Of a stretch of 64,000 nt of DNA, positions 2,457-64,000 are shown one piece after another. The position numbers were made by a program, and so were the translations under genes. Source of the stretch: a virus; IMG/VR virus record IMGVR_UViG_3300046328_000506, positions 32,001 through 96,000 of that record. One strand, given 5' to 3'. Position 1 is the first letter of the stretch; the number at the start of each line of letters is the position of its first letter. Under the pieces are notes generated by a model that worked only from the letters and a program-made list of their open reading frames with translations, did no database searches and had not been told where the DNA came from.

Positions 2457-4226
2457 TTAAAAATATGTTGTTGAAACTACTACTTCATTGGCGACTCCTG
2501 TTGCTGTATTGTCATTATTTACTATACCCGATGTAATGGCTAAACTAAAACCTGTCGGAAGTCTTATTCCAAATGCACCACAATCTATAGAAACACTCTG
2601 CCCTGCTGGAATAAAATAATTCAATGTAGCATTTGTAGTTCCCATTACAACTGAAGCACTCAAAGAGTTAAATATTTTCAACCATCTTCCTGTCGCAGAT
2701 ATATTACTACAATGTATATTATTCAATACTGTAGCACCTGATTTAATTTGAATTAAACTATTTGTAGCATTAGACACTATATTAGTATGTGTAGAAGCCC
2801 CTTGTGCTGTGCTACCTACATTTGTTACTACACTGTTTGCACCTAAATTGGCAGTTACTGTACCTGAAACAGCTTGGGTATTTACATAAGTAGGAATTGT
2901 AGATTGTAAACCGTTTACTAATAAAGTAGTTGTTCCTCCTGTAGTTGCTGTAGTAAGCCTTAAAATAAAATATCTCGCTATTACATTTGTTATTCTTAAA
3001 GCCGTAGTATTAAAAGTACCAGAAATACCTCCACCAATAGGGTCAAATAACTGCCCATTTTGTCTTACGGCTAAAGTAGGGTCATTACTCCACTGCCCTG
3101 TAATTACACCTGTCGTACCTATTGAAGTACATTGTATAGATAAACTTCTAAGTTGTGAGCAATCTATTACTAATAAATCTGTGTTGATAGGTATCACTCC
3201 TACTTGTGAAAAAGAAAATGGTGTTAATGGTACTTGTGTTGCTTGAATATTTTCGCTAGCACTCATTACACCTATCTCTAACTTATTGTGATTTTTACAA
3301 GTAATATAATCAAGAATAATGTTGGTATTAGTTGCAGGAGGAGTTGCTCCATTTAATACTGCAACACCAGCACCCATTGTATCATATTGACTTGGAATAA
3401 CCCTTGTATGTCTTGCTACTCTTATTTCGTTAATATAAAAAACTACTTCTTCAGTAAGTAATTCGACACGATATTCTAAACTTGTTGCTGTAGTTAAACC
3501 GTTTGGAATTGTTACAACTGTCTCTTGAATTTCATTACCTGTCGGAGCTATTGTTGGATTTCTTGCAGTTTGACATTTTATTGTAGTATTTGTCGTACCA
3601 TCTGCTTGAAATCTTGCAAACCATTTAGTAGGAGAACCCTCATCATTTAAACCAATATTAATTGTCTGATTTATAATTCTTTGAGATATACTTAAACCTG
3701 CTCTATATACTAATGGAGCTACATCAACAAATCTACCTAATACTGTTACAGCACTTGCTGTAGTTCCTGCGGCTATCGTAGCTGCTCCAGAAGCCACTGA
3801 TGTTGTTGCTCCTGTTCCAGTAAAACTTCTTACTATTTGTCTACTTGCTACACCTGTTGTAGTTGCCCCTGTATAAGGTGTTTCAAGAATTATTTGTGTA
3901 GGAGTAATTGTATCTATTTGAACAAGTGTGCTCTCAGCATGACCGTCAATATTTACATAATCACCTGCTTTTACATCATAAGTATTAAATGCTGTTCCCG
4001 TAACTATATCACTTCCATTTGTAAAAGTACAAGTGCCAATACTAACTCTTAAAGAAGTATTTGCAAAGTTTACTCTAAAAGTACCTTCATCTGTTAAAGC
4101 AGCACCTCTCATCATAAGATTACCATCTGCATCAAAAGAGGCTTCTACTACATCTGGCGCAATAGGAGCTACTGGAGGATAATAATCTTTTTGTATTCCG
4201 TTTAATCTAAAATTTTCTGCGTACAT
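2457..4226 (-). CDS. Tail fibre / receptor-binding-like structural protein
   Basis: 589 aa, Thr/Gly/Val-rich beta-type composition; N-terminal GTCTFTNGSDIVTG module resembles one in 35894..36673. Confidence 0.65.
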   Translation of the reverse strand: MYAENFRLNGIQKDYYPPVAPIAPDVVEASFDADGNLMMRGAALTDEGTFRVNFANTSLRVSIGTCTFTNGSDIVTGTAFNTYDVKAGDYVNIDGHAESTLVQIDTITPTQIILETPYTGATTTGVASRQIVRSFTGTGATTSVASGAATIAAGTTASAVTVLGRFVDVAPLVYRAGLSISQRIINQTINIGLNDEGSPTKWFARFQADGTTNTTIKCQTARNPTIAPTGNEIQETVVTIPNGLTTATSLEYRVELLTEEVVFYINEIRVARHTRVIPSQYDTMGAGVAVLNGATPPATNTNIILDYITCKNHNKLEIGVMSASENIQATQVPLTPFSFSQVGVIPINTDLLVIDCSQLRSLSIQCTSIGTTGVITGQWSNDPTLAVRQNGQLFDPIGGGISGTFNTTALRITNVIARYFILRLTTATTGGTTTLLVNGLQSTIPTYVNTQAVSGTVTANLGANSVVTNVGSTAQGASTHTNIVSNATNSLIQIKSGATVLNNIHCSNISATGRWLKIFNSLSASVVMGTTNATLNYFIPAGQSVSIDCGAFGIRLPTGFSLAITSGIVNNDNTATGVANEVVVSTTYF

Positions 4227-8788: not shown

Positions 8789-9577
8789 TTAACTGTAGAT
8801 TAAAGCTGCTCTATTATCCCAAATATTTGTATGAGTTTGTGTTCCACCTGCCCAAGTAATTGTTAAACTACCTGTTGCTACAACTTCAACCATTCTCATT
8901 ATTTTCCATGTAGCAGCATTTGTTAAAGTTCCAGGTAAAGCCCATCCTACATAAGTTGTAGTTGAACCTGCTCCTGGAGTATTTGCTAATACATCTGTTC
9001 TTAAGACTGGTACTCCTCCTGTATTAACATGTATTCTACCGTATAAATCAGCAGAAGTTTGTATGTAGTCGCCAGTATTAGAAGTTGTAGATGAAAGTAC
9101 ATCTTGTCTTACTCCTAATATACTTACTCCACCATCACCACTTGCAGCTGGAGTATCCTCATACTTTACTAAATCATTTAATTTAGCTATAGTAGAAGTC
9201 TTAAAATCATTTACCTCAGCTATTAAATCAAGAATACTGTTTTGTATATCTGTAGTAACTACTAATAATGCTTGTAGCTCTGTAATAGCTGTTTGTAGCT
9301 CTGTTACAATAAGATTTGAGTTAGTTACCAATAAAGTAGTATCTGCTTCTATTGCTGTAACTAATGTTATAACGTTATTTAAAGAAGTTTCTATAGCTGC
9401 TGTATTAGCATCAATAGCCTGTACTGCCAATAATATCTCTGCTGTATCACTTTTTATATTTGTAAGTCTTGTTGTAATACCTACAAGATATGATTCAAGT
9501 AAATCTGGGTCTATAATCCTTGCCCAAATAGCTTGTAGTAACTCTATAATTCTCCCTGTTTCTATCGTTGTTTGCAT
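8789..9577 (-). CDS. Putative fibre/structural protein with coiled-coil N-half
   Basis: Heptad-like N-half; C-terminal TYVGWA.PG....ATWKIMR...W...WDNRAAL.YS motif seen in phage structural proteins. Confidence 0.6.
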   Translation of the reverse strand: MQTTIETGRIIELLQAIWARIIDPDLLESYLVGITTRLTNIKSDTAEILLAVQAIDANTAAIETSLNNVITLVTAIEADTTLLVTNSNLIVTELQTAITELQALLVVTTDIQNSILDLIAEVNDFKTSTIAKLNDLVKYEDTPAASGDGGVSILGVRQDVLSSTTSNTGDYIQTSADLYGRIHVNTGGVPVLRTDVLANTPGAGSTTTYVGWALPGTLTNAATWKIMRMVEVVATGSLTITWAGGTQTHTNIWDNRAALIYS

Positions 9578-48957: not shown

Positions 48958-51693
48958 TTATTCACAACTAATACAATGCGCAAATTTACGACTAAACTCA
49001 GAAGCAGATGAAATGTTATGCTGATAATACAAAGTCTTAACTCCCATATCGTGTGCAAGTAACATTAATCTATTTACTTCTTTTGCTGTAGTATCTGCTG
49101 TAATAAATAAGTTTAATGATTGTGATTGGTCAATATACTTTTGCCTATGTGCTGCTTGTATAATTATTTCTTCTTGACTAATCTCTCGTGATGTTTTAAA
49201 TACTAACTTCTCATCATCTGTAAGGAAATCTAAATGTAACACACTTCCCTTTTCTTTCATTATACTATTCCATACTTCATCGGTATTTTTACCTTTTTTA
49301 ATTAATAAGTTTTGTAAGTAGGGATTTTTAATTACAAACTTTCCTTTTGCTAAATCTTTAATATAATAGTTACTATCGTAAGGTTCTATACTTTGACTTA
49401 CTTGTCCTAAAATAAACGCACTACTTGTTGTGGGGGCAATTGCTTGTAGTGTAGTATTTCTTCTACCTGTTCCTTTTGTCCATTCACATTCACCAAACAT
49501 TACAGCTAACTTTTTAGACGCTTTTAAGGCTTGTGATTGAATTGTTTTTTGTATTGATACATTATGTAGTCTTGCTTCCAACGATTCAAATGGTATCATC
49601 TTAGATTGTAAATAAGAGTGATAACCTAACCTGCCAATACCTAATGCTCTATGATTCTTAGCAAAGTTTACTGTCTTTTCCATGAACTTTATCTTAGATG
49701 CCTTATTTATAAACTCTGTCATTACAGCATCCAATAAAAACGTAACTACTTCTACACAATCTGTATCTTTCCACTCTTCATAATACAAATCATTTAAGGA
49801 AGCTAAATCACACACAAAAGATTCTTCAGTATTTACTGGCAAACAAACTTCAGAACAATTAGATGTGATAACACTATTACAAATCCAAAGATGCTCATTT
49901 GAATTCACTGTCGTACAATACACATCTTCATTACCAACATATTCTATAGATTTTATTTTATACGATTTTTTACAGTTACTCCTATATTCTCTATCTTCAA
50001 TAATAATATTTTTTCGTGATAAAAATCCTGTGTATTTTTCTAATTCTAATGCTGCATTTTTATCTCCAAAATATAATCTCCAACAATCCTTTGTTTCATA
50101 ATATTTATGACCACCATTTCCGTCTGGTAACAATGTTTCGCCAGCTTTTCTCATTATTGCTATCTTTGCATTTAAACCGAGATTGTTAAATAGTATTTGT
50201 AATTCTTCTAAAAACTCTCGATTAATGTTTGATAGTGATACTTGAAGTGCTTGATTACTTTCTTGTAATCCGACTGTGCCATCAGCATATAATAATCCCC
50301 TTATATATTGCCATTGAGTTAATTCGTCAGATTCCCAAATCCATTGTGGCACATATCCTTTTTCAAAATTTAATGCTTTTTTTAAACTTTTACTTGTTAA
50401 TCTTTTCTTTTTAACAGTAGAATGATAAACTGCACAATCTGCAAATTTTGCAATTTCATAAACTCTATTGTTTACTCCAATATTTGATTTATATTTGTTA
50501 GTAATATTAGTAAAACATGTTTCAATTTCTGGTATTAAATCAAAATCGTTTTCCCACACATCTAACATAACAGAGTCTTTATGCTGAGTTCCATCTGCTT
50601 GATATAGTCCTAATAAAAACGCCTCTTCTTGCATTGAATTTTTGCCAAAAATACCTTTGTTTGTTTGAGTGCAAACTTTATCATCAACTTTTAAATCTTT
50701 ACATTCAACCATGCCATACTTATTGTCTCCATAATAAACTTTTACTTTGTGATAAGAAGTAACTGTGTGAGTAATTCCATTCTCCAAAGTTAATTTATAC
50801 ACAGGAGCATCTTTCTCAATTAATCTCATTGGGGAAGCAGTTACAATTTTTGTATTATCAAAAAGTGTTAATTCTTCACCTCTGTCATATAATTCTTTAA
50901 CAGTTAATAAGCCGTCTGAGGTTGGAACTCGTTCACTCCCTATTACACAAAGATTTGACGCTTTAATCAAGGATTTGTTCTTATAAACTTCTGGTGTAGA
51001 TTCTCCGTTATTTACATTATCTTTAAAAAATATGTAAGGTAAACCTGTTTCAAATCTTTTCTGAATTACTTTAGCCCAAAGATTTCTTTTTTCAGCATCA
51101 CCCTCTTTCATTTTTTTAATCCAATCAGAAGAAATACATACTCCCCAAGTTAATTGTTGTATTGGATTACCTTCTTTTCTTATGCCCAACCACTCCTCTA
51201 TATCTGGATGTGTAATGTCTTGGTAAACAGCAAGATAACCCCTTCTTGATGAGCCTTGAGAAATCGTATTACTTACACTTTGGAATAGTTCTAAGAAACT
51301 AAATGTACCATTACTCTTACCATTGTTTGTAATAGCACTGCCTCTTGGTCTTACATCTCCAAAATAAGCTGATGTACCACCGCCAAGTTTACTCATCATA
51401 CCTATTTCTGCTGATGTTGATAAAATATCTTCTACTGTATCGTTTACATAACTTGAAAAGCAAGAGATTGGTAAACCTCTGTCTGTGCCAAAGTTAGTCC
51501 AAATAGGTGTAGATAAACTTATCCAACCATTAGCTATGTATTGTTGTAGTTTTATAGAGAAACCTTCTATCCCTAATATCTTTTCAGCATTATCCCCAAC
51601 TATTTTTATTCTTTCTTCTACTGTTTGATTTGGTAGTAAATAATCTTTTGATAGAAACTCCTTAGAGTAGTCTGTAAGCCATCTTATAGTCAT
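48958..51693 (-). CDS. nrdA: Class I ribonucleotide reductase alpha subunit, intein-containing, no ATP cone
   Basis: GLPISCF, SQGSSRRG, SNL|CSE, AIAPTTSS, IDQSQSLN, KTLYY, C-terminal CISCE. Confidence 0.95.
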   Translation of the reverse strand: MTIRWLTDYSKEFLSKDYLLPNQTVEERIKIVGDNAEKILGIEGFSIKLQQYIANGWISLSTPIWTNFGTDRGLPISCFSSYVNDTVEDILSTSAEIGMMSKLGGGTSAYFGDVRPRGSAITNNGKSNGTFSFLELFQSVSNTISQGSSRRGYLAVYQDITHPDIEEWLGIRKEGNPIQQLTWGVCISSDWIKKMKEGDAEKRNLWAKVIQKRFETGLPYIFFKDNVNNGESTPEVYKNKSLIKASNLCVIGSERVPTSDGLLTVKELYDRGEELTLFDNTKIVTASPMRLIEKDAPVYKLTLENGITHTVTSYHKVKVYYGDNKYGMVECKDLKVDDKVCTQTNKGIFGKNSMQEEAFLLGLYQADGTQHKDSVMLDVWENDFDLIPEIETCFTNITNKYKSNIGVNNRVYEIAKFADCAVYHSTVKKKRLTSKSLKKALNFEKGYVPQWIWESDELTQWQYIRGLLYADGTVGLQESNQALQVSLSNINREFLEELQILFNNLGLNAKIAIMRKAGETLLPDGNGGHKYYETKDCWRLYFGDKNAALELEKYTGFLSRKNIIIEDREYRSNCKKSYKIKSIEYVGNEDVYCTTVNSNEHLWICNSVITSNCSEVCLPVNTEESFVCDLASLNDLYYEEWKDTDCVEVVTFLLDAVMTEFINKASKIKFMEKTVNFAKNHRALGIGRLGYHSYLQSKMIPFESLEARLHNVSIQKTIQSQALKASKKLAVMFGECEWTKGTGRRNTTLQAIAPTTSSAFILGQVSQSIEPYDSNYYIKDLAKGKFVIKNPYLQNLLIKKGKNTDEVWNSIMKEKGSVLHLDFLTDDEKLVFKTSREISQEEIIIQAAHRQKYIDQSQSLNLFITADTTAKEVNRLMLLAHDMGVKTLYYQHNISSASEFSRKFAHCISCE
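49858..50949 (-). mobile_element. Intein (364 aa) with LAGLIDADG homing endonuclease in nrdA
   Basis: Begins CVIGSERV, ends VYCTTV...ITSN before the catalytic Cys; LLGLYQADG and IRGLLYADG motifs. Confidence 0.92.
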
Positions 51694-51715: not shown

Positions 51716-53665
51716 TTAAAATAAATCGTCTGAAGTAATGCTTTGTGCTTTCTTAGTGTAATTTGTAGGTACTTTATTGAAAAAGTCTGTATGTGTATTA
51801 GATAAGGTTTCTACATCAAACCATGCTACTTGTTTTAATAGTTCTGTATTAACATAGTATATCTTATTAGCGCCTATCATTTCTAATGACTTGTTAAATC
51901 TATCTTTTAAAAATTCTATAACTACATTTTTAGGTAAGAAATCTATTTCTCCATTTTGGAATATCCAATCTACTATTTTTTCTTCTGCTGAAAATGCTTT
52001 TTTACAAGCTCTTGTAATTGTGTCGTAAAACTCTTGTGTAAATATTTCTGGGCATTGCTTTTTAACTAAACTAATGATATAAGCCCCAGCTTTGGCATGG
52101 AGGTCTTCCTCTGACCTTGTAGCTTGTATTACATTATCAATACCTTTAAATAAATTCTTTTCTTTGTTGAATGATTTAATAATGAGGAACTGAGAAAACA
52201 AAGATACATTCTCTATAAATAAACTAAATAGAGTAAGGGTTAGTATGTATTGTTCTTTGTTATTTGAGCTTGCGTTTTTTAAATATTTTTCTAAATAATC
52301 TATTCTCCCTTGTATAACAGGTTCTTCTATTAGTTTTTCAAACGCTTCATTTAAACCTAATAATTCTAAAAGATTAGCATAAGCTCTTAGATGACGAATT
52401 TCCGAGTTACCCCCAATAAACGTACAATTATTATATCTTGTTACAATTGCACCAGATGGTACAGTTACACAATATATATTTCCTGTGTAATTTTCTATTG
52501 TTTCTTTAAGTGCGCTAAATGCTACTTTTTCTCTGTTAGCAATAAATGAAACAATATAAACATCGTTAAATGTTTCTTTTCTGGAATCTTTATGTATTCC
52601 CATATTAGCTTTATATCCAGCCAATGTTCCTATCATTTGTACAATATCAGCGTTTGTTTTGTCTGTGGTAGAATATTTTATCTTACAATCTTTTTTGTGT
52701 GGTAATCTTGTGCCATCCCAGTAAGACAATTCTTCAACAAAATCTTTACACCATAAATGAGATTGTTTATCAATTACAACCCAATTAAATTGCTTGTAAT
52801 TAAATTCTGTATCCATATCAATTTCAACTTTAATGTAACCTGTTTTTGTCACATTAAACGTTCTATATGTTACATCGCAATCTTTTAATATTTCAAAAAG
52901 CCTTTCTTTTTTACGTTCTTTCTTAACACTTATTTCATAAGTATGACAATTAGAACTTGTGCCCCTATGCCTTTTTTCTCCACTTTTTAATCTTCTCCAA
53001 CGAATTGAACCATCTGCTTGTATCGCAATTTTTAATCTTTCTAATGATGTTAGTTTATGAATTTCACCATTAATAATACCTGCTTCTGGTAAAAAATTAT
53101 TACTATTTTTTACACCAAGTTCTTTAATACTTTTTGATGTGTAGTTTCCTTTTGAATCAAAATACACGATTCTATGATTTGGTGTGATTTGTACATCAAT
53201 ACCTTTTTTGTGAAGTTTGTGAATTTCTCCAGAGTAATGTTCTTTAATAGTCCTAAGTGCTGGTGTAAAATTAATCTTACAATCTTCAGTATACTGTGCT
53301 ACTAAATCACCAACATTTATTTTTTCAAAATTTACCCATCCATTTGGTGTTAGTATTTCAGTGCCTTCAATATGACACTCACCGAAGCTAACACCCAGCA
53401 TATCAAATTCTGGTTTGGGGAATTGATTATACAAGTTACTCCAAAACCTTTTTACATTTACTTCTATTTGTGATATTGCAAGCATTGCATTTGTTACAGC
53501 ACTTCGTTCTACGACACTCAAATTTGCTTTGAAGTCTTGTATATCACTGTTATAATTGAACTCGCTATGAAGCCAATAGCTATGGTTTATAGCATCTACA
53601 AAATCTATTAACTCTGGGTACTCGTAAGGTTTTAACGTAGTTCTTTTTTCAAATATATTTGGCAT
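51716..53665 (-). CDS. nrdB: Class I ribonucleotide reductase beta subunit, intein-containing
   Basis: KPYEYP, SQIE, SEIRH..AY, IENVSLFSQF, EEDLH, DFF. Confidence 0.95.
   Translation of the reverse strand: MPNIFEKRTTLKPYEYPELIDFVDAINHSYWLHSEFNYNSDIQDFKANLSVVERSAVTNAMLAISQIEVNVKRFWSNLYNQFPKPEFDMLGVSFGECHIEGTEILTPNGWVNFEKINVGDLVAQYTEDCKINFTPALRTIKEHYSGEIHKLHKKGIDVQITPNHRIVYFDSKGNYTSKSIKELGVKNSNNFLPEAGIINGEIHKLTSLERLKIAIQADGSIRWRRLKSGEKRHRGTSSNCHTYEISVKKERKKERLFEILKDCDVTYRTFNVTKTGYIKVEIDMDTEFNYKQFNWVVIDKQSHLWCKDFVEELSYWDGTRLPHKKDCKIKYSTTDKTNADIVQMIGTLAGYKANMGIHKDSRKETFNDVYIVSFIANREKVAFSALKETIENYTGNIYCVTVPSGAIVTRYNNCTFIGGNSEIRHLRAYANLLELLGLNEAFEKLIEEPVIQGRIDYLEKYLKNASSNNKEQYILTLTLFSLFIENVSLFSQFLIIKSFNKEKNLFKGIDNVIQATRSEEDLHAKAGAYIISLVKKQCPEIFTQEFYDTITRACKKAFSAEEKIVDWIFQNGEIDFLPKNVVIEFLKDRFNKSLEMIGANKIYYVNTELLKQVAWFDVETLSNTHTDFFNKVPTNYTKKAQSITSDDLF
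52406..53377 (-). mobile_element. Intein (324 aa) with LAGLIDADG-like endonuclease in nrdB
   Basis: Begins CHIEGTEILT, block B TPNH, ends IYCVTVPSG...GGN before Ser; IAIQADG and LSYWDG motifs. Confidence 0.9.
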
Positions 53666-53784: not shown

Positions 53785-54045
53785 CTAAAAAATTAATGTA
53801 AATATTAATATAATTATTTCAGCAATCCAATAATTTAATATTACTGATAAAGTAGTCATTAGCCACAAGTTATCATCTACTAAATCTTTAAAATATTTGT
53901 TTACTTTGTCTTGTTGTTCTTCTGGATTGTATTCATCTAATTCTACTGTTCTCGCTAAATACCAATTGTATAACAATAAAGATATGTAAATAGCTGATGC
54001 TGAAAACGCATATAGAATGTCTTTTGTTTTTTGATTCATAAACAT
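53785..54045 (-). CDS. Small two-TM membrane protein
   Basis: Hydrophobic N- and C-terminal segments. Confidence 0.55.
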   Translation of the reverse strand: MFMNQKTKDILYAFSASAIYISLLLYNWYLARTVELDEYNPEEQQDKVNKYFKDLVDDNLWLMTTLSVILNYWIAEIIILIFTLIF

Positions 54046-54093
54046 TAGTTTTATAATGCAAATTTAAGTACAAATAATTTAATATCACAATAA

Positions 54094-54125
54094 TTTGATA
54101 AAGATTTTTATTATTTATATCTTTG
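54094..54125 (+). promoter_or_regulatory. Bacteroidota sigma-A promoter
   Basis: TTTG-N20-TATCTTTG upstream of 54155. Confidence 0.75.
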
Positions 54126-54154
54126 TGCAAAATTAAAACTGATAAAAATAATAA

Positions 54155-54901
54155 ATGGAAACTTTAAAGACATTCAATATAAGTGAATATCCTTGTTTTG
54201 TAAAACGAGATGTGTTGAGAAAAGAAATAGAAGCATTAGGTATTAATGTAAATTGTGTATATGATATGTATGTATCAGAAGTACAAACTTATAAACATGG
54301 AAAGTATGTTTTTGTTTGGAGAACTTCTGGAGTACAAGATTTAATGGGAGATAACATAAAAGATTTAACGGAAAAACAAAAAGAGGATTTAGTGTACTTA
54401 GCTGCAAATGATAATTCTTTTATTTATAATGTGTTTGTTATCCCAATATCTATATTTGACAAAACTCCGTATATTGGCTTTCCTGCTGATACATATTCTG
54501 GTGATGTTATATCTAAATTAAAATGGATTATTGGGGAATTAAAAAAAGATGCCGAACAATACATTGATAGGTTTTTATCTTATAATGAGTACATTATTCG
54601 TCTGAGTATTGACTGGTATGATGGAAATGATGCTGAATATGAGTTTTTATTCAAACAAAATTTGCAAAATGAGTTATTTTACATTACCAATATCACAGGT
54701 AGAGGAGATACTTATAGATTTGGTATTGATAATAAGATTAGTAAATTAATAAGCGAAAATTTTAAAAGTATTATAGACAACTTTAAACTTACCTCTTATA
54801 CAAGAAATGAAAGTAGGGATAGAGAAAAAGAAGTTAATGGCGAGAAAATTCTCCATAAATGTTACGAAACTGATTATATAATTAAATTACCAATAAACTA
54901 A
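54155..54901 (+). CDS. Hypothetical protein
   Basis: 248-aa ORF with promoter. Confidence 0.7.
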   Translation: METLKTFNISEYPCFVKRDVLRKEIEALGINVNCVYDMYVSEVQTYKHGKYVFVWRTSGVQDLMGDNIKDLTEKQKEDLVYLAANDNSFIYNVFVIPISIFDKTPYIGFPADTYSGDVISKLKWIIGELKKDAEQYIDRFLSYNEYIIRLSIDWYDGNDAEYEFLFKQNLQNELFYITNITGRGDTYRFGIDNKISKLISENFKSIIDNFKLTSYTRNESRDREKEVNGEKILHKCYETDYIIKLPIN

Positions 54902-55001
54902 ATTTAACCTCCCTATAAAAACATGAGTACAATTATTATTATTTTTGCTCTTTTAGTTGTAATTAATTATGGTGTAAATATTTACATGAATAAAAAATCA
55001 A

Positions 55002-55268
55002 ATGAGACTAATTAATCTTTCATCAATACCTAAGTTTGGAGAATTATCTACTGAGGAAGCTATTGATTATTGCTTAGATAATGATATAGATACAATACGT
55101 GATAACTTCTCAGATTATAAAATAGAATATACTTTATCTGATTTAATTGTAATACCTGAATATAAAACTAAAACTATTTGGGAGAACATTAGGGATAGGG
55201 GAATTGAATATTTAGAAAGACAAGAGTTAAAAATTAAGATAAACTATTACCCAAAAGAATTTGAATAA
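55002..55268 (+). CDS. Hypothetical protein
   Basis: 88-aa ORF in plus-strand operon. Confidence 0.55.
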   Translation: MRLINLSSIPKFGELSTEEAIDYCLDNDIDTIRDNFSDYKIEYTLSDLIVIPEYKTKTIWENIRDRGIEYLERQELKIKINYYPKEFE

Positions 55269-55512
55269 AAATATGAAAACATATAAGTTGAGAAAATACA
55301 ATCCAAGTGGTCTTTTTGAAATCACAGAAAAAGATTACACTAAATTGAAAGGGGTTATTTTTTCAGAAGAAACAGATTCTATTGATATATTAAAATGCAC
55401 AGATACAAAAAGTGGTAACGAAGTGTATTTAAAAAATCTTTCTGTAAAAAATAATATTGCACAATTAGGGGCAAAAGGATATTTACCAAAAGTTATAGAT
55501 TTTAATAAATAA
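55261..55512 (+). CDS. Hypothetical protein
   Basis: 83-aa ORF; start possibly the internal ATG. Confidence 0.55.
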   Translation: MNKNMKTYKLRKYNPSGLFEITEKDYTKLKGVIFSEETDSIDILKCTDTKSGNEVYLKNLSVKNNIAQLGAKGYLPKVIDFNK

Positions 55513-55650
55513 TGAAACTTAAAATAGAAATACCACCTAATCAAGCTAACGCCTCATGCCCTAATAAAAATGAATGTAAAATAATTAGGATACCAAATGG
55601 TGATAGTGAAAGTTTAATGTGTAAGAACTGTAATAAAAAAGTAAATTAAA

Positions 55651-55956
55651 ATGAAGAAACTTGTATATGGAACACCTATGATAGATATATCTGACTTAGA
55701 ACAAGTAAAAGAAGAATCTACTAATAAAGTATTTAATGAAATAAAAATTAATCACTCAGAATTTATACAACAAACTTATAGTGAATCAATGACAGATTCT
55801 TCAAAAGTTAAAGTAATGACCTCTGTTTGTCTACTAACATCAAGAGAATTTGTTACACTAAATAAAATAATAGAAAAGTTAGAATCTGAGGATTATAGTA
55901 AAGGTGAAATAATTGAACAATTAAGAAAATTAACAACAGAAACTATTTATTTATGA
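55651..55956 (+). CDS. Hypothetical protein
   Basis: 101-aa ORF. Confidence 0.6.
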   Translation: MKKLVYGTPMIDISDLEQVKEESTNKVFNEIKINHSEFIQQTYSESMTDSSKVKVMTSVCLLTSREFVTLNKIIEKLESEDYSKGEIIEQLRKLTTETIYL

Positions 55957-56267
55957 AACTAACAATTGATACAAAACTAAAACAAATAATGATAGAAGAT
56001 TCTGTTAGTATTAACGAACTAAATTCTTTTATAGTAAAGAATGGTTATAATGATTATACAATAGTTTCAAAAGAAAAAATAGAAGCAGATAAATTAAGGG
56101 AATGGTTTAATCAACCAAGAGATTATATTACAACAAACAATCTCCCAACTTTTAATCCTACATATTATGGCGGTAATGATGCACTTGATAATAGTAAATC
56201 AATGATAGGTAAGGTTACAACAAATGGTAGTATGTCTTTTGGTAACTTCTCTAAAAACGCTTTGTAA
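55953..56267 (+). CDS. Hypothetical protein
   Basis: 104-aa ORF, ATGA-coupled. Confidence 0.6.
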   Translation: MKLTIDTKLKQIMIEDSVSINELNSFIVKNGYNDYTIVSKEKIEADKLREWFNQPRDYITTNNLPTFNPTYYGGNDALDNSKSMIGKVTTNGSMSFGNFSKNAL

Positions 56268-56610
56268 TATGATAATAAATAAAATGTTAATGTATAATGC
56301 AGTAATTTGTAATAAATTACCGTTTGATTTTTTTAAGGATGTTGAGTGTGATTTTTCTACTGTTGATGGTAATAGAAAAATATTTTATGTAAAGAGGGCA
56401 TTGGGGGAAATTTTAAAAATAGATGTTACAGACTATAGTGTTAGCATTTATTATTCAAAAGTTTTAGAACGTGATGGAAATAGTAGTATTGCAAAAACAA
56501 TAGAGGAGAGTTTTACTTATGGCTCTAAAAATACCAATGAGCATTTTGATATATGGTGTAATCGTATTATTAATTCTGTAAGCACAATTCAAGAGAAAAT
56601 GTTTGTATAA
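56224..56610 (+). CDS. Hypothetical protein
   Basis: ORF; true start probably downstream (MIINK). Confidence 0.55.
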   Translation: MVVCLLVTSLKTLCNMIINKMLMYNAVICNKLPFDFFKDVECDFSTVDGNRKIFYVKRALGEILKIDVTDYSVSIYYSKVLERDGNSSIAKTIEESFTYGSKNTNEHFDIWCNRIINSVSTIQEKMFV

Positions 56611-56675
56611 AAACTTTTATATTTCAATTATAAGCTAAGATAATTTTAAACCTATATTGTATCAACTTAAAAAAG

Positions 56676-56719
56676 AAAGTGCCTTAAAACTCAATTGTGA
56701 AAGTTTTAAGGCACTTTTT
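56676..56719. terminator. Bidirectional intrinsic terminator
   Basis: AAAGTGCCTTAAAACT / AGTTTTAAGGCACTTT between convergent gene blocks. Confidence 0.8.
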
Positions 56720-56910
56720 ATTTGCTTGGTATTTACTTTTTAATTTTATTAATATCATTTGTATCAACTTCTCTGTAACTAACATTCTCAAACTTTTTTG
56801 GAGAAGCTAATATGTTATCAAGTTCTTGTTTTGTAAGGATTTCCATTACAGTATTAGAACTGTACACATCTAAATAATTAACTAAGTATTTTTTCATGTT
56901 CTCTAATTGT

Positions 56911-57141
56911 TTAAATTAAACTTGGTTTATAATCTACTCTTTTTCTATTATCTATTGGTATCACTTTGTAAAAGCCTTCAATTAATATATTGTGGGTTTC
57001 AAAATTCTTAATCATGTTTTCTAATCTTTCTCCAACATTTTCTCCAAAACAAGTGTAGTTCATATCTTCTGATATTAACTCTGCTCAATTAGAAGGTAAG
57101 TGAAAATAGATTATACAATCTTTATGTATTTTTGGTTTCAT
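56911..57141 (-). pseudogene. 76-codon ORF with one in-frame TGA (pseudogene or read-through gene)
   Basis: MKPKIHKDCIIYFHLPSN-TGA-AELISEDMNY...KPSLI; ATG lies 1 nt after the stop of the upstream gene. Confidence 0.55.
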
Positions 57142-57142
57142 T

Positions 57143-57343
57143 TTATTCTTCAATTAAATCTTCATAATTAACTATTAACTCTTTCAACTGCTCTTCTGTT
57201 AAACCTCTTTCTCTAAAACCTTCTAACATAGCTTTATTACAAAGTATTTTTGGGGAAGGAAGTTCTGGCGAAGTCTCTATCTTTTTATATAGACTTGCAA
57301 ATGCTTCCTTTAATGCTTTTTCTGATAATTCAAAGTTACTCAT
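57143..57343 (-). CDS. Hypothetical protein
   Basis: 66-aa ORF. Confidence 0.6.
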   Translation of the reverse strand: MSNFELSEKALKEAFASLYKKIETSPELPSPKILCNKAMLEGFRERGLTEEQLKELIVNYEDLIEE

Positions 57344-57453
57344 TTTATTTTTGTTATACTAACTTTTTGTACTGTGCAAATAATTATGCTATTTTCTTGT
57401 GTGGCTACGTTAAGGTATTTTTGGTACAGTGTGCGGTGGAGGAAACCATCTTG

Positions 57454-57966
57454 TTAATTTTCATACCCCTGCCTATACACTACATTGTTTGGAAATTTAG
57501 TTACCCTATTCCCTTGAAAAAAGAAATCTGGGTTTGTCCAGTATATCCCTTTAACTACTGATTGTTGTATTATACAATACCTTGTTAATTCTTTTATCGC
57601 ATTATGATATGTAGAGAGAGATTTAATTAAATTCTCATCCATATATCTTTTTGTATTTATCCACACAAAATCTTTATTTGAGTCTGCTTCATATATTAAC
57701 CACAAATATAACCTTTGTGATTTGTCAGATAGCCCATTTATAATTTGTCTGTGAATAGCTTTTGTATAAACTTTTGTAAATGGAGTATATTCCATCTCCA
57801 ATTGCTTGTTTATCAAATCCCCATCCTTGTCTTTATGATAAGTATCTTTCTGGGTAAACGTAGATACTGGTATTTGTAACCCACATACAAAAGGATTAAT
57901 ACCTAAATCCTTTTCTTCAAATAATGGTTTGTATACTCTTGATGATTCTTTCTTTCTCGCAGCCAT
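57454..57966 (-). CDS. RepL-like replication/HTH protein (copy 2)
   Basis: Colinear paralogue of 10118..10645 (FTKVY, YHNAIKEL, GIYWTNPDFFFQGNR). Confidence 0.75.
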   Translation of the reverse strand: MAARKKESSRVYKPLFEEKDLGINPFVCGLQIPVSTFTQKDTYHKDKDGDLINKQLEMEYTPFTKVYTKAIHRQIINGLSDKSQRLYLWLIYEADSNKDFVWINTKRYMDENLIKSLSTYHNAIKELTRYCIIQQSVVKGIYWTNPDFFFQGNRVTKFPNNVVYRQGYEN

Positions 57967-57985
57967 TGATTGTTCTAATTATTTA

Positions 57986-58017
57986 CAAAGATACGAAGAA
58001 TTTATTATAAATACAAA
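57986..58017 (-). promoter_or_regulatory. Bacteroidota sigma-A promoter
   Basis: TTTG-N20-TATCTTTG upstream of repL-like copy 2. Confidence 0.78.
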
Positions 58018-58713
58018 TAATTGTACTAATTATGTTTATTTGTATAATGTTTTTATTCTTGTAATATACAGTACAAAAAATTACTATGATAAAAATGATA
58101 TAACTTATTGATTGTTAGAGCTTTACAAGGATATTATGACAAACTCGTTTTAGCAGTAATATTAATTACTTTGTACCAAATCCAAGTATAGTTAAATAGT
58201 GGTATAACTACTGTGATACTCAATGAGTTACAGTGATTTTCTCTATGTAAAAAATTGTACTACTATTTTTATACCCCTCCCCCTTTTGAATTTAATATCT
58301 TTAACCGTTATAAATTTTTACACAGTACCTATATTAGTAATGATACCCCCTCACTTTTTAATGGGATTATAGTTTCTGATAATAAAATTGTATGTGTGTG
58401 TTCTAAGGGTGATACCATCTCATAATTGACCCTCCATCAAGAGCGTATTAGAAAATAGAATTGATATACTGTTTCCTATTGGGAACAGTCTATTGATTTT
58501 ATAAAAAAGAATAGCTTTACAGTAATGTAAAGTAACAGAATCAATTAAGCGGTGTTAGTTGCTTAATCTATTCTTATTCTAATGTGCATAGTAAGGCGTT
58601 ATCTTGCAAGGCTTAACACACTTGTAAGATATTAGGATAAGAATAAAAGGGTATCCCTTTTTTCTCTTTGCAGTGTTAAATAGTTTCCTTACAACTATTG
58701 CAAAGTTTTTTAA

Positions 58714-58786
58714 CTTGTATATGACAGATGCCTTTACGTGGCATACAAGATAAGTAATTACGAAAGTAATGAAACTAAATCTGTCA
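58714..58786 (+). ncRNA. HDV-like self-cleaving ribozyme candidate
   Basis: P1 CTTGTAT/ATACAAG, P2 TGACAGAT/ATCTGTCA, P3 GCC/GGC with 7-nt L3 TTTACGT, P4 ATTAC-GAAA-GTAAT, J4/2 ...ACTAA; the helices occur in the nested double-pseudoknot order. Confidence 0.7.
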
Positions 58787-58953
58787 AAATTGGATTATTC
58801 CAATAGAGTTTAAGTCTTAACACGTTGTTTTGTCTTAACTTTGTTGTACTATTCTAATAACAGTTGTGTATGTTTTCTTTAATAGCATACAAAGGTTAAA
58901 TTGTGATATACCTATTAATCTACTCACACAAAAATACCATACCATTTATTTAT

Positions 58954-59433
58954 ATGAAATCATTAACAGAATTATTAGCAGAATTAGCAGCAGCACCAGC
59001 AAACAAAAAAGCAGCAATTCAGTTACAAATTGATGCCAAAAAAGCAAGTAGAACTAATAGCTTAACTGCCTATGCAGAAAAATATGTAACAAGTTCCTTG
59101 TTTTATGGTTCAAAAGAAGAGCAGGCAATTAATATGCAGGTTGTTTTCAATGATGATGATACTGTAAAAACAAAAGAAGTGCAGGCATCAGGCAACAAAA
59201 AAACACAACGTATCATTGCAATTAACATTGATACGGAAAAGGAAATCACTTTGCCGTCGTTATCTGAATTGAAAAAATTTAGCGGTGAATCTGAAAACTT
59301 TTGGAATCATTGCAATTATGGGCAACCGTTTGCTTTAAAGTTTACTACTATCAAAAGTGGTGAAGAGAATCCGTTGACTTCAGAAACCTATACAAGACCC
59401 ACTTTTGCTGTTAGTGAAATTACGTCTATGTAG
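58954..59433 (+). CDS. Hypothetical protein, probably highly expressed
   Basis: ATG at 58954 (MKSLTELLAELAAAPANKK); followed by a terminator. Confidence 0.7.
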   Translation: MKSLTELLAELAAAPANKKAAIQLQIDAKKASRTNSLTAYAEKYVTSSLFYGSKEEQAINMQVVFNDDDTVKTKEVQASGNKKTQRIIAINIDTEKEITLPSLSELKKFSGESENFWNHCNYGQPFALKFTTIKSGEENPLTSETYTRPTFAVSEITSM

Positions 59434-59441
59434 TAAGTCTT

Positions 59442-59486
59442 ATACATACCTTGTATATTTCTATATATAAGGTATGTATTTTTTTT
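59442..59486 (+). terminator. Intrinsic terminator
   Basis: ATACATACCTT / AAGGTATGTAT stem plus T-run. Confidence 0.7.
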
Positions 59487-59519
59487 AATTGATTTTTTCA
59501 CACTTTAATTTTTACTTTT

Positions 59520-59705
59520 ATGAAGTGTACTATTTTATTTTTTGCAGGTATTGACAAAGAAACAAGGGAATATACCAAAGAATCTTATGTTTGTGATTTT
59601 CCTTTAAAATTTGGATTTGGTTCTTTTAACGAGGATAGCATTATTAAAAATATACCTAAAAAGATATTTGTCAAAGATATTATATCTATTGACTTAATAG
59701 ATTAA
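59520..59705 (+). CDS. Small hypothetical protein
   Basis: 61-aa ORF. Confidence 0.5.
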   Translation: MKCTILFFAGIDKETREYTKESYVCDFPLKFGFGSFNEDSIIKNIPKKIFVKDIISIDLID

Positions 59706-59964
59706 TAAAGAATATTGAGAATGTTAGAGTTCTCTATTCTTTTAAAATATAAAATACCTTGACTCAGTCATTTCAAACATTTTTACTATTCAACAGTAAA
59801 ACGTGTAAGAAAATATAACGGTGTCGTCATAGGTGTTTGTGTCTATTTTTAGTCTACTCTAACAAATAATTTAGGCTTGTCTAAACTTTTGTTTTGGTTT
59901 ATCTAATCTTTTTCTTATTAAATACCTTGACACAGGGAAATCTCACATTTAATCATTTAAAAAC

Positions 59965-60171
59965 ATGTTAGTTATATATAGAGGAATACTTTCTTTTGCT
60001 GATTTAAGAGAATTAAGCAAAGAGTCTGACATCTCCAACAGACAATACTTGATAAAAGTAATTGGGGAAACTATGGAAACATTTTTTGTTACCAAAGAAG
60101 ATTACGAATCATTTCGTAGTGGACTCTCTACATCTGATAGAGGTACATATTGGTTTGAGATGGGATATTAG
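59965..60171 (+). CDS. Small hypothetical protein
   Basis: 68-aa ORF with AT-rich leader. Confidence 0.55.
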   Translation: MLVIYRGILSFADLRELSKESDISNRQYLIKVIGETMETFFVTKEDYESFRSGLSTSDRGTYWFEMGY

Positions 60172-60193
60172 TTTAGGTGTTCTTAAAACACCT

Positions 60194-60295
60194 CTGTCGT
60201 TTATATGCACTATGGAGTATCTTACTAACGTAAGATACGTGTATAAACCTGATGAAATAAGTATCTAACGACACTTAGGGGATAACCCGAAACAG
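60194..60295 (+). ncRNA. Type III hammerhead-like ribozyme with insertion
   Basis: Stem III CTGT/ACAG, GTC cleavage triplet, 10-bp stem I, CTGATGA core, GGG-ATAA-CCC stem II, GAAAC; 23-nt insert between A9 and G10.1. Confidence 0.6.
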
Positions 60296-60349
60296 TAACC
60301 ATAAATTTTCTTAATTTTACATTTTCAAATACTAAATAATATAAATATC

Positions 60350-60562
60350 ATGGAAGAAACATTAGTAATAAATGGTATAACTTATGGAGAAGTTGTATCG
60401 GAGTTTACAGCGTTAAGCAAATATACTGGCGAATCAATTTCTGTTGAAGGTGTTGAATTTAATCAGTACGAAAATGGGAAAATTGAAACTCCTATTGGCT
60501 ACGACACTATTGATGGTGAAGATTGCACTATTTGGGGTAGTCGTTATCCTGTATCATTGTAA
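60350..60562 (+). CDS. Small acidic hypothetical protein
   Basis: 70-aa ORF. Confidence 0.6.
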   Translation: MEETLVINGITYGEVVSEFTALSKYTGESISVEGVEFNQYENGKIETPIGYDTIDGEDCTIWGSRYPVSL

Positions 60563-60586
60563 AGGCAAATTTTAACTTAGAAAAAT

Positions 60587-60799
60587 ATGACACAAGAAGT
60601 ATTTATTGACGAACAAGGGAATGTGATTCTTAATAGAGAAACATTTGAACCAAAGCCAAACGAGAAATTTGGCAATCCATATCGTGAAAATGGGGAATTG
60701 CACGTATCTTTTACTTTTGAAGGAGGGCATGATTATCCTATGTTTTATTCTTCAATAGAAGAGCTTAGTGCCATCAAACAATGGTATTGGGAAAGCTAA
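60587..60799 (+). CDS. Small acidic hypothetical protein
   Basis: 70-aa ORF. Confidence 0.6.
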   Translation: MTQEVFIDEQGNVILNRETFEPKPNEKFGNPYRENGELHVSFTFEGGHDYPMFYSSIEELSAIKQWYWES

Positions 60800-60862
60800 A
60801 TAAAACTTAAACTTGCAAATTTATATTAGATTATTCTTCTTTTAGAACTATCTATTGTATAT

Positions 60863-61162
60863 TTGCAAGTTGATTTTAACTTAAAAGACGAACTCGTTAC
60901 GTCATTAAAGAAGCGAGATAAAATGCCATTATTTTCAAGCCAAGTAATTGGCTATTTTAACAATGAGTACGGGAGTGCTTATTGTGATATTTACTGCTCA
61001 GATAATTTGTCAGAGCAACAAATGGAAGAGATTCATCAGAATCATCTTCAAAACGGTGATGTGTATCGCCAATGTACTTTTATGAGTCTTGTAGAGGCTC
61101 GTAAAATGTGGAAAGAAAATCCACAGTACATAGAACTATTTGAATCCTTTTGGGAAAAATAG
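60863..61162 (+). CDS. Hypothetical protein
   Basis: ORF; start uncertain (internal MPLFS possible). Confidence 0.55.
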   Translation: MQVDFNLKDELVTSLKKRDKMPLFSSQVIGYFNNEYGSAYCDIYCSDNLSEQQMEEIHQNHLQNGDVYRQCTFMSLVEARKMWKENPQYIELFESFWEK

Positions 61163-61590
61163 TGTACACTGATAGGGGAAATAAACTCCTTAATCAATAG
61201 TAGAGTTGGGTAATCGCATGATTATTTAAACTATTGAGGATTGAACAACAATTCTATTTTTTGTATGTTTTTAAAAACATAATCCTGTTTGAGCAGGGAT
61301 ACCATAGAGTATCAAAGGTGATTAGGCTCAAATTTCGTCACAGTGCCAGTTGAGAAGGTTCTTAATCAACCTTCTCAAGAAATCGTGTGTCATCACACGG
61401 AAGATTGGGGAAACCCATTAGGAGGAGTGGAACCTTGTGATGAGCAAGGAAACTCTATAACAACTCCATTGATAGATGAAAATCTTCTGTGGATAGTTGT
61501 AGAAGACTAATAATCTTCTAACGTAAGACGACCACGAAACGGTTGAAAGAGTAGTAACTCTCCTGAATAAAAGCAGGGTATAGTAAAAAA

Positions 61591-61790
61591 GATTTCATAG
61601 CTCAATTGGTCAGAGCATTTTAAAATAAACAACAGCTTTTTTTATAAGTGAAGATAGTAACTTATAATTTAAACGTAGTTGTTGAAGTGATTAAAAGATA
61701 ATAAAAGCCCAGCAGAATGGGAAGAAACGAAAACTTTTAATCAGTTGTTTATTTTTAAAAAGGTTTCAGGTTCAAGTCCTGATGATTTCA
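61591..61790 (+). ncRNA. tRNA-like RNA with the anticodon loop replaced by a 133-nt insert
   Basis: D-arm GCTC-AATTGGTCA-GAGC, T-arm TCAGG-TTCAAGT-CCTGA, variable loop AGGTT, acceptor GATTTCA/TGATTTC (two U-U mismatches), anticodon stem TTTTA/TAAAA. Confidence 0.7.
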
Positions 61791-62526
61791 CGAACTCGAA
61801 TATATTGTTAATGGCATCTGGACTCCGAAGTAGGCTATGTTGTGAGACATAGAAAAAAAGGGCTAACAGAAATAATGTTCTAACAATACAACGAAGCATC
61901 TGTGTAGAAGTACAATACATAGGTAATCATAGCTTCCATATAACCGTTTTAAAGTGTGTTGGGTTATAGAATACTAATAGACTATACAATGTCTATTGAA
62001 TATCGGCTCGAAAGAGACCATATAAAGTTTGAAGTAAAAGTTTCGTTGGCTCAAATGAATACTGCTAAGAGTTGAAAACGCAGAGACGAAACAATATTTT
62101 ATTTCAAATGGTGGCAGCAGTCAGAAATGATTGCCTCAATTATATTATTACAACAACCTTATGTTAAGTTAAAAGGTAAAAGACGGTTCAGGTTTAAACC
62201 GATACCTTGTTGTAATAAGATAAAAGAGTAGTAACTGTTAGTAATAACAGACTTCATCAGACGTGATGACTTGGAGAGCAAACTAAGGTTCGTGTATCTC
62301 TTTACGTTGTGCAGACCCGAAAGGGTAATAAACAAATGGTCAATAATAAGGGAAATTTCTCTTTAAAGTAAAATTATGTAAAGTAATATATGTGTTGTTA
62401 TAGCAACAGTGAGTAATCACAAACATATATGAAATCATAAGCTGCTATAACAGAACTTTAAATAGAAAAGGAGTATCGAATACTTCATTGACCGCATTTT
62501 TTTAAATTAATTAAAACTCATATACG

Positions 62527-63114
62527 ATGAAAACTACTCTTTTCGTGGCATTTAGCCACACTCTTACTCAAAGCCAAATTGACGGCTTTCAAAGTCAATT
62601 TTCTACTCAAACTGTTATCAGAGAATTTTCTGATAATGGTGGTATTCCCACTGGTGACGGTGGAGAAGCGTTTACTGAATTTGTTGATTTCAGTATTGTA
62701 AGTCTTGGTGAAGTTGCACCAGAATTACAAGCTCAAATGAGCCAAATTCCTGCAAGAGCTACTTTACAAGAAGTTCAAGAGCTTGCGAAAAGCATTGTAG
62801 CTGAAGCAATCAAAGCTGGTGCAACACATTTTTTCTGTGTTGGTGAACCTACTCTTACAATGTGGGCTAACTTATTGATAGAAAGAAAGATGGTGTCAGC
62901 AAGACTCACTTACTATGTGTCAGAAGATGGTACAGAAGTAGGGTGGGGTAAAACTTCATCTGTTTTTGTAGAGGATAGATACAAAGTCGAACATCCTCAA
63001 ATTACTTGTATTCAATCAACCACTGAACGTCAATCAGTTGAGGAAACTCAACCTGACGGAAGTGTTTTAAAAAAGGCTATCTTCAACCACGTAATGTGGC
63101 GAGAAATGTTTTAG
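62527..63114 (+). CDS. Csx20-like CARF-related protein (candidate cA4 ring nuclease / anti-CRISPR)
   Basis: LFVAFSHTLTQSQ...LQAQMSQIP...VGEPTL...STTERQSVEE.QPDGSV.K..IF.HV.WRE matches my recollection of the Csx20 pattern FSHxLT..Q / WSNIP / QGDF / TTxR.S.E..DG..K.F.HV.FR. Confidence 0.7.
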   Translation: MKTTLFVAFSHTLTQSQIDGFQSQFSTQTVIREFSDNGGIPTGDGGEAFTEFVDFSIVSLGEVAPELQAQMSQIPARATLQEVQELAKSIVAEAIKAGATHFFCVGEPTLTMWANLLIERKMVSARLTYYVSEDGTEVGWGKTSSVFVEDRYKVEHPQITCIQSTTERQSVEETQPDGSVLKKAIFNHVMWREMF

Positions 63115-63195
63115 TTCTTTAAGTTTGTAGGTGTATATCTTTAAAACCTTCACATAATGTTCCAAAGACTATTAGGAAAGACTAATAACAATACC

Positions 63196-63289
63196 TGCTA
63201 TAAAGCCATGTAGGCTCTCAATCTTCAAAAGAGAAGGGAAAGTGGTGAGTAACATCATTAGTAGGGTACGAGTCCCTTATATAGCACAA
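63196..63289 (+). ncRNA. Degenerate tRNA-like element with a CUUCAAA (UCA) loop and long variable arm
   Basis: Acceptor TGCTATA/TATAGCA, D-stem AGCC/GGCT, variable arm AGTGGTG/CATCATT, T-arm AGGG-TACGAGT-CCCT; anticodon stem imperfect. Confidence 0.45.
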
Positions 63290-63465
63290 TTAAACTTATT
63301 TTTAAATATTTACCACAATAGTTTTAATACTGTTGTTTGGTATTTTTTACAACTTATTCCAAATGCAAGGGGTAAGTATGTTTAGTAATTGGGGCTTGTG
63401 GTTACTAATAGCTATGGTAGCTGTTAGGTATATTCGTGCAATTTTACTCATTAAACTATAATACT

Positions 63466-63627
63466 ATGGAAAACTCTTTTGAAGTAGAAATGGATTTCTC
63501 CGATTTAGAATTAGATTGGGAAATAGATGAAGACTTTGATGATTCAGATTTTATGGATTATGAAGAGTCTGATGACGAGTACCAAGAACGCTTAGAAAGG
63601 TCTTGGGCTAAATACGAAAACGATTAA
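63466..63627 (+). CDS. Extremely acidic small protein (DNA-mimic candidate)
   Basis: 53 aa from ATG 63466; 24 Asp/Glu residues. Confidence 0.6.
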   Translation: MENSFEVEMDFSDLELDWEIDEDFDDSDFMDYEESDDEYQERLERSWAKYEND

Positions 63628-63694
63628 AAATAAACTTCCCGTTATCACCAGAAATCAAGTAGGGTGAATAACGGGTTTCCAAAATATTTATGTT

Positions 63695-63856
63695 ATGAAA
63701 TTATCACACATTGAAAATACAATCTTTGGATTAGGTGTGGCTACTTGTTTATTAAGTTGCTACACTATCCCTTTGTTACTACCACAAATATTCTTTTGCT
63801 TGGCTTCATTAACTTTGAGTATTGGAATATTTGAAAACACAACACAAAAAAATTAA
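63695..63856 (+). CDS. Small membrane protein
   Basis: Own translation MKLSHIENTIFGLGVATCLLSCYTIPLLLPQIFFCLASLTLSIGIFENTTQKN. Confidence 0.5.
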   Translation: MKLSHIENTIFGLGVATCLLSCYTIPLLLPQIFFCLASLTLSIGIFENTTQKN

Positions 63857-63891
63857 ATCATTTTACATAACCATTTAACTTTACAAAAATT

Positions 63892-64000
63892 ATGAGAAAA
63901 TTAATTTTGCCTATTCTATTAGGTTTCGTTCTTATTGCAATCTTAGGGATTGTGGGTTCAGTATCGGCTCAGTCAGCATTTGAAGTGGCTGTCTACACTA
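63892..64000 (+). CDS. Partial secreted protein
   Basis: MRKLILPILLGFVLIAILGIVGSVSA|Q signal peptide; runs off the window. Confidence 0.55.
   Translation, partial: MRKLILPILLGFVLIAILGIVGSVSAQSAFEVAVYT

Follow-up and report, generated by a model that had tools for sequence, protein, structure and literature searches.

The intergenic element and its predicted fold

The candidate element occupies positions 60194-60295 (+) of the window, by which we mean the whole stretch of 64,000 nucleotides that was analyzed. It lies in a 178-nt spacer between the + strand ORFs 59965-60171 and 60350-60562, and from about 54,000 onward small ORFs form a long series on this strand. The window corresponds to bases 32001-96000 of IMGVR_UViG_3300046328_000506, a virus record of 130,171 bp with 30% G+C, linear topology, and a completeness of 76% (CheckV). 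Large terminases of crAss-like phages that infect Bacteroides, Flavobacterium, and Cellulophaga share at most 27% identity (25-27%) with that of the record; the nearest large terminase overall, with 82% identity, is on a 2.5-kb contig, and all others reach 40% at most. Identical DNA was present in freshwater metagenome runs of several studies, and Shine-Dalgarno sequences were absent at the ORF starts of the record, which has the appearance of a remote member of the crAss-like phages, from fresh water and with a Bacteroidota host.

The features of the spacer and its flanks, all on the + strand, are the following:

59965-60171, +: upstream ORF, 68 aa, ATG start; matches only itself
60175-60193, +: terminator-like hairpin of 7 bp, found by a consensus scan and contained in the spacer MFE structure; directly 5' of the element
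60194-60197, +: 5' strand of stem III, CUGU, including G16.2 and U16.1
60198, +: C17; predicted scissile bond 60198/60199, placed by the hammerhead consensus
60199-60248, +: stem I, 10 bp (60199-60208/60239-60248) with two G-U pairs
60209-60216, +: 8-nt bulge of stem I, between the 10-bp part and the distal hairpin
60217-60225/60230-60238, +: distal hairpin of stem I, 9 bp, loop UAAC
60249-60255, +: core C3-A9, CUGAUGA
60256-60278, +: insert between A9 and G10.1, 22-23 nt, the length depending on the stem II register
60258-60262/60273-60277, +: insert hairpin UAAGU/ACUUA, 5 bp
60279-60281/60286-60288, +: stem II, GGG/CCC with loop AUAA; G10.1-C11.1
60289-60295, +: G12 A13 A14, then the 3' strand of stem III (A15.1 C15.2 A G)
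60350-60562, +: downstream ORF, 70 aa, ATG start; matches only itself

The three core motifs, GUC at 60196-98, CUGAUGA at 60249-55, and GAAAC at 60289-93, are exactly where an earlier note, made from the sequence of this DNA, had placed them. All of the invariant hammerhead core letters are present (C3 U4 G5 A6 N7 G8 A9, G12 A13 A14, A15.1-U16.1, and H17), with zero substitutions; A60292 and U60197 form the A15.1-U16.1 pair, and C60198 is C17. The semi-conserved features (N7=U, G10.1-C11.1, C15.2-G16.2, C17, and the GUC triplet) are there as well, in the correct order and adjoining the right helices. Helices I, II, and III adjoin the core strands in hammerhead order with 10, 3, and 4 bp, stem III being merely CUGU/ACAG (60194-97/60292-95). 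The same note had described a 10-bp stem I with a nested 9-bp hairpin, stem II as GGG-AUAA-CCC, and an insert between A9 and G10.1 that folds as UAAGU/ACUUA; our analysis reproduced the positions of both stems and found the insert, with its fold and a length of 22-23 nt. Stem II could just as well adopt another register (G60278-80/C86-88, 5-nt loop), and RNAfold chose that one. We ruled out UAAGU/ACUUA itself as stem II, since insertions would then be needed in both core strands.

The element occurs once in the genome. Its G+C content is 0.35, against 0.20-0.25 in the remainder of its spacer, and the leader of 54 nt that separates it from the downstream ORF is A/U-rich. Within the insert, RNAfold predicted inner pairs (60264-65/60270-71) and a second UAAC loop. 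The hexamer CUAACG, at 60225-60230 and 60265-60270, comprises the loop and closing pair of both hairpins (C-UAAC-G); it occurs 21 times in the genome against 17.5 expected and is not a genome-wide motif. The UAAC loops may be UNAC-type tetraloops.

The four-helix structure was the MFE structure of 60185-60305 (−26.5 kcal/mol, z −2.68; RNAfold), and 3 of 200 shuffled sequences folded as well. In the full spacer and in a longer context, the predicted probability of stem III was 0.01-0.02; that of stem II was 0.15-0.19 in spacer contexts. The MFE structure of the spacer contains a 7-bp helix, 60195-201/60267-73, that competes with stem III. Its strands are those singled out by the earlier note, which had presented AACGACA (60267-73) as the complement of UGUCGUU (60195-60201), and the two are indeed exact reverse complements. 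The alternative fold with this helix reached −26.0 kcal/mol against −26.5 kcal/mol for the hammerhead fold, so that the two are isoenergetic, and the pair probabilities of the helix were 0.29-0.41. When the insert was removed in silico, the predicted probability of stem III did not rise (0.01); the insert is therefore not the predicted cause of the weak stem III. Inspection by eye for a tertiary contact between stems I and II gave a single candidate of 4 bp with one G-U (60213-16 with 60264-67), estimated to be at chance level, and no convincing contact.

Family membership, relatives, and rarity

The Rfam hammerhead models gave no match to the element at the gathering score, nor at E ≤ 10 (301 nt) or E ≤ 1 (10 kb), and RF00008 (Hammerhead_3) searched alone gave none at E ≤ 10. 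HDV-like and other ribozyme families were likewise without a match at E ≤ 1 in positions 54000-64000 (Rfam). The candidate shares with RF00008 the order S-C-G, closed stems I and II, and an open stem III, together with CUGAUGA, GAA, A15.1-U16.1, C17, G10.1-C11.1, C15.2-G16.2, and GUC. It differs in the 22-23-nt hairpin between A9 and G10.1 and in its unusually long stem I (10 bp, bulge, 9 bp). The continuity of CUGAnGA with stem II is thus broken by 22-23 nt, whereas all known hammerheads have at most 1-2 inserted nt there in the published alignments, as these are described by Eckert et al. (2023). Because both the continuity of this block and the Rfam score are lacking, we do not file the candidate as a member of the hammerhead family. 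It is a candidate new variant that would be hammerhead-like in its working.

The literature held no precedent for a hairpin or an extra stem in a hammerhead core, with the qualification that the supplements of Perreault 2011 and Eckert 2023 could hold variants. A comparison of 59500-61000 with 50,697 phage records (blastn) returned no match. Viral contigs contained no relatives of either flanking ORF or of two larger neighbouring genes, nor a close relative of the major head protein, and the search of both flanking ORFs among 5.8 billion proteins returned self-matches only. None of the search routes led to a diverged homologue of the element. The element was present, letter-identical and with 0 differences, in contigs of two other samples (X2, 59971-61000; X3, 60172-60373); two further runs (X4 and X5) had no coverage of 60163-60315, and no RNA runs were listed as carrying its sequence.

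To express rarity we used a descriptor of type III hammerheads that permits an insert of at most 30 nt after A9 and that was defined after the fact. A strict hit has a stem I of at least 7 bp and a stem III of at least 4 bp, and the consensus level adds G10.1-C11.1, C15.2-G16.2, and C17. With CUGAUGA required, there were 0.52 permissive and 0.02 strict loci per shuffled genome (4 of 200 shuffles had a strict one). The corresponding values with CUGANGA were 1.53 and 0.033 (23 of 700 shuffles), and consensus-level loci occurred in none of the 700 shuffled genomes. The real genome had four permissive loci, three of them of chance quality; only 60194-60295 reached both the strict and the consensus level. 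Natural DNA of unrelated viral and metagenomic origin (853,679 bases) yielded nine permissive, zero strict, and zero consensus loci.

Pattern scans of three public collections (CUGAUGA(A), gap, GGG, 4-6-nt loop, CCCGAAAC) gave 183 matches: 26 viral, 68 metagenome, and 89 genome. A stem I of at least 4 bp with a stem III of at least 3 bp was found in three of the 183, and stems of at least 7 and at least 4 bp, respectively, in none. Since these scans cover just one stem II sequence, a class with other stems remains compatible with this outcome. The combination of features is rare and better than chance for this genome. By a product estimate it amounts to about 1e-4 per genome, at which some chance cases would still be expected over the 250,000 windows scanned.

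A further hammerhead-like match, at L111 (about 8858-8960), was rejected as chance: it is without stem II, has a z of −0.37, and spans an ORF start.

The downstream twister and the origin of the element

A twister-P3 ribozyme (RF03154) is located at G000:C1:96334-96401 (L003:635-702) on the + strand, with 49.0 bits against a cut-off of 39.9 and an E of 1.6e-7; the match is full length (model positions 1-73). Its position is 334-401 nt past the window end, with the candidate 4.1 kb upstream of it on that strand; the spacer that contains it measures 147 nt and is flanked by two + strand ORFs. By eye, this spacer has a long hairpin followed by a U-run at its start, and the spacer of the candidate likewise opens with its terminator-like hairpin (60175-93). 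Reviews describe bacterial self-cleaving ribozymes as often close together and sharing gene neighbourhoods, and hammerheads flanking genes or short gene blocks have been reported in prophages. A chance look-alike would have no reason to adjoin a twister, and the twister is therefore the strongest single argument that the candidate has a real ribozyme origin. The earlier note had proposed a hammerhead-type element between two same-strand ORFs, and both the rarity statistics and this twister-P3 support that proposal.

A scan with a twister core pattern of 16 letters found 19 loci, of which 17 were searched with Rfam. Seven of the 17 contained Rfam twisters, and one locus without a scored twister contained a hammerhead type II. 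An Rfam hammerhead stood beside the twister in 0 of the 7 viral twister loci, a small sample, and none of the twister-pattern loci was related to this phage arm. Elsewhere, a 17.7-kb viral contig carries two twister-P3 ribozymes on one strand (L102:638-715 and 1982-2057, +), 1.3 kb apart; this pair is another case of ribozymes bracketing a short block. One 186-kb viral contig has four matches to the core pattern (L103, L112, L114, and L115). Three of these were searched (L103, L112, and L115), none reaching the Rfam twister cut-off, and the contig may hold a repeated twister-like or unrelated element.

Our preferred reading, which we hold tentatively and give somewhat less than an even chance, is that the element is a self-cleaving ribozyme derived from a type III hammerhead, of novel architecture, that cuts a polycistronic transcript after C60198. 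The motifs, the helices, the statistical rarity, the same-strand intergenic position, and the nearby twister are established; we infer that the core may fold actively with the insert extruded, that the RNA may be cleaved, and that cleavage may serve mRNA processing. The core strand between A9 and G10.1 would be interrupted by a compact hairpin of 22-23 nt, giving a four-helix junction; that a hairpin extruded at this point forms a four-way junction is conceivable on steric grounds. Within a polycistronic transcript, the cut would fall after C60198 (GUC|G). It would leave an upstream RNA whose 3' end is 5 nt past the stable hairpin 60175-93, and a downstream RNA that starts, with a 5'-OH, at the foot of the long stem I and continues through the A/U-rich leader into the following ORF. 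Combined with a cut at the presumed site of the twister-P3, this cleavage would release a block of about 4.2 kb, comprising four small ORFs and a structured ORF-free stretch of 1.36 kb.

Known hammerheads offer partial parallels to this reading. A stem II of 2-3 bp is described as normal. The earlier note had invoked a viroid with a tolerated single-nucleotide insertion at the same junction, and a review bears this out: in CChMVd(+), A9 and G10.1 are separated by an additional A10, which lowers the rate moderately, and a U there is even faster. In Penelope-element hammerheads, a conserved nucleotide is reported between 9 and 10.1. The 9/10.1 junction is thus the one core position with documented, tolerated natural insertions. 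Both groups share with the candidate an insertion at this junction that is, by these accounts, compatible with activity there; theirs is a single nucleotide, whereas the candidate would need to accommodate a whole hairpin, pushed out of the core as a fourth helix. The saltern HHmeta and HHphage (Perreault et al., 2011) are also phage-associated, and their core insertions are described as slowing cleavage under standard conditions; HHphage heads an early polycistronic transcript. In contrast to the candidate, they have a 2-nt insertion beside C3 and stem I and come from extreme halophiles. The non-circularly permuted hammerheads (SGC and CSG; Eckert et al., 2023) likewise evade standard models, with rearranged connectivity and intact core letters. 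As presented there, each of their three blocks is unbroken, whereas the candidate has the classical order and an interrupted block C. Clustered prophage ribozymes, as the literature describes them, bracket short gene blocks on the same strand, as the candidate and the twister-P3 would do over 4.1 kb; here, by comparison, the carrier is a crAss-like, virulent-type freshwater phage and one partner is non-canonical.

Chance resemblance is an unlikely explanation that nevertheless has to be taken seriously. It would mean that ordinary regulatory hairpins, such as a terminator or sites for an RNase or a protein, adjoin three short core motifs and that no cutting takes place. The silence of the Rfam hammerhead models, the insert that breaks the known hammerhead architecture, the thermodynamically marginal stems III and II, and the terminator-like hairpin directly beside the element all fit it, and conservation was not seen, as no homologue was found. 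The permissive descriptor moreover matches 1.5 times per shuffled genome, and the candidate was picked out of a very large scan. Against it, the full feature set was absent from the 700 shuffled genomes and the 853,679 natural bases, comparable stems were absent from the 183 pattern matches elsewhere, and a random look-alike would be very unlikely to have a twister, discovered independently, in a comparable spacer on its own strand at a distance of 4.1 kb. The same sequence evidence that suggests an active ribozyme would also suit a former canonical type III hammerhead, disabled by the hairpin insertion or by its weak stem III, with hairpins that may persist for another use. Decay of this kind would agree with the accounts in which every known active hammerhead has an unbroken CUGAnGA block and other core insertions (HHmeta, A6a) strongly impair activity. 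We consider it quite improbable: the core is without any substitution, the insert forms a tidy hairpin that repeats the UAAC loop of the distal part of stem I, its location is the one core junction where insertions are tolerated, and phage genomes rarely keep dead sequence.

There is a slim chance that, as the earlier note had inferred, the hammerhead inhibits itself or can be switched, with AACGACA pairing with UGUCGUU over the scissile bond to hold an inactive fold, and with release by a factor, by co-transcriptional timing, or by a translating ribosome. That the flanking ORFs are early, as the note called them, is an assumption. An exact 7-nt complement of the cleavage site does exist; a fold built on it matches the hammerhead fold in energy and, over the entire spacer, is the MFE structure. 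A complement that spans the bond had a chance of 0.012 in 200,000 shuffles of the insert and of 0.0033 in 260,296 genomic 23-mers; by a broader, post hoc test, however, which counted 7-nt complements of the insert anywhere else in the element, the chance was 0.09. The complement is also part of the stem and loop of the insert's own hairpin, which would have to melt beforehand, removal of the insert in silico leaves the probability of stem III at 0.01, and relatives with co-variation of both 7-mers were not found. Such a switch is possible and would rest on one complementarity of marginal significance. The fuller form of this idea, to which we would likewise give little weight, is a four-helix hammerhead in which the 9/10.1 hairpin acts as a regulator in cis, its 3' half pairing across the scissile bond. 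Folding kinetics or a trans factor would then control cleavage and hence the separation of two phage messages, and the element would be the first natural hammerhead whose CUGAnGA block is interrupted as well as the first that inhibits itself.

If the element does cleave, as our preferred reading of an active hammerhead-derived ribozyme supposes, the rule of an uninterrupted core block would fall, on which homology searches and the 2023 permutation theory depend, and covariance-model searches would be overlooking a class of four-helix hammerheads. The 9/10.1 junction would be a natural attachment point for regulatory modules and useful in aptazyme design. The crAss-like phages would also gain a pair made up of a hammerhead variant and a twister, on which the idea that ribozymes process operons during phage gene expression could be put to a concrete test. 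Should cleavage fail to occur, the element would serve as a warning about hammerhead look-alikes.

Other features of the phage genome

Two further stretches of the + strand arm are predicted to be structured. The ORF-poor 581 nt at window positions 58373-58953 (+) have strong predicted structure (z −7.35) and include two terminator-like hairpins, 58468-89 and 58645-61. Positions 61163-62526 (+), 1,364 nt without ORFs, have very strong predicted structure (z −8.6), and the G+C content is locally raised to 0.41-0.45 at 61300-61500. The sole Rfam signals in this block were weak: a tRNA-like match at 61724-61790 (18.5 bits, E 1.1) and RAGATH-12 (16.7 bits, E 2.5).

Further along this + strand arm, some 2.4-2.8 kb past the twister, are two tRNA genes, at G000:C1:98796-98868 and 99104-99174 (L003:3097-3169 and 3405-3475; +), with 57.3 and 62.2 bits. 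On the − strand, the genes for the large and small subunits of RNR (window 48958-51693 and 51716-53665) were each matched in two separated stretches, and an N-terminal or internal part of 330 aa of the small subunit matched unrelated PHROGs. These split matches suggest inteins or fused homing modules.
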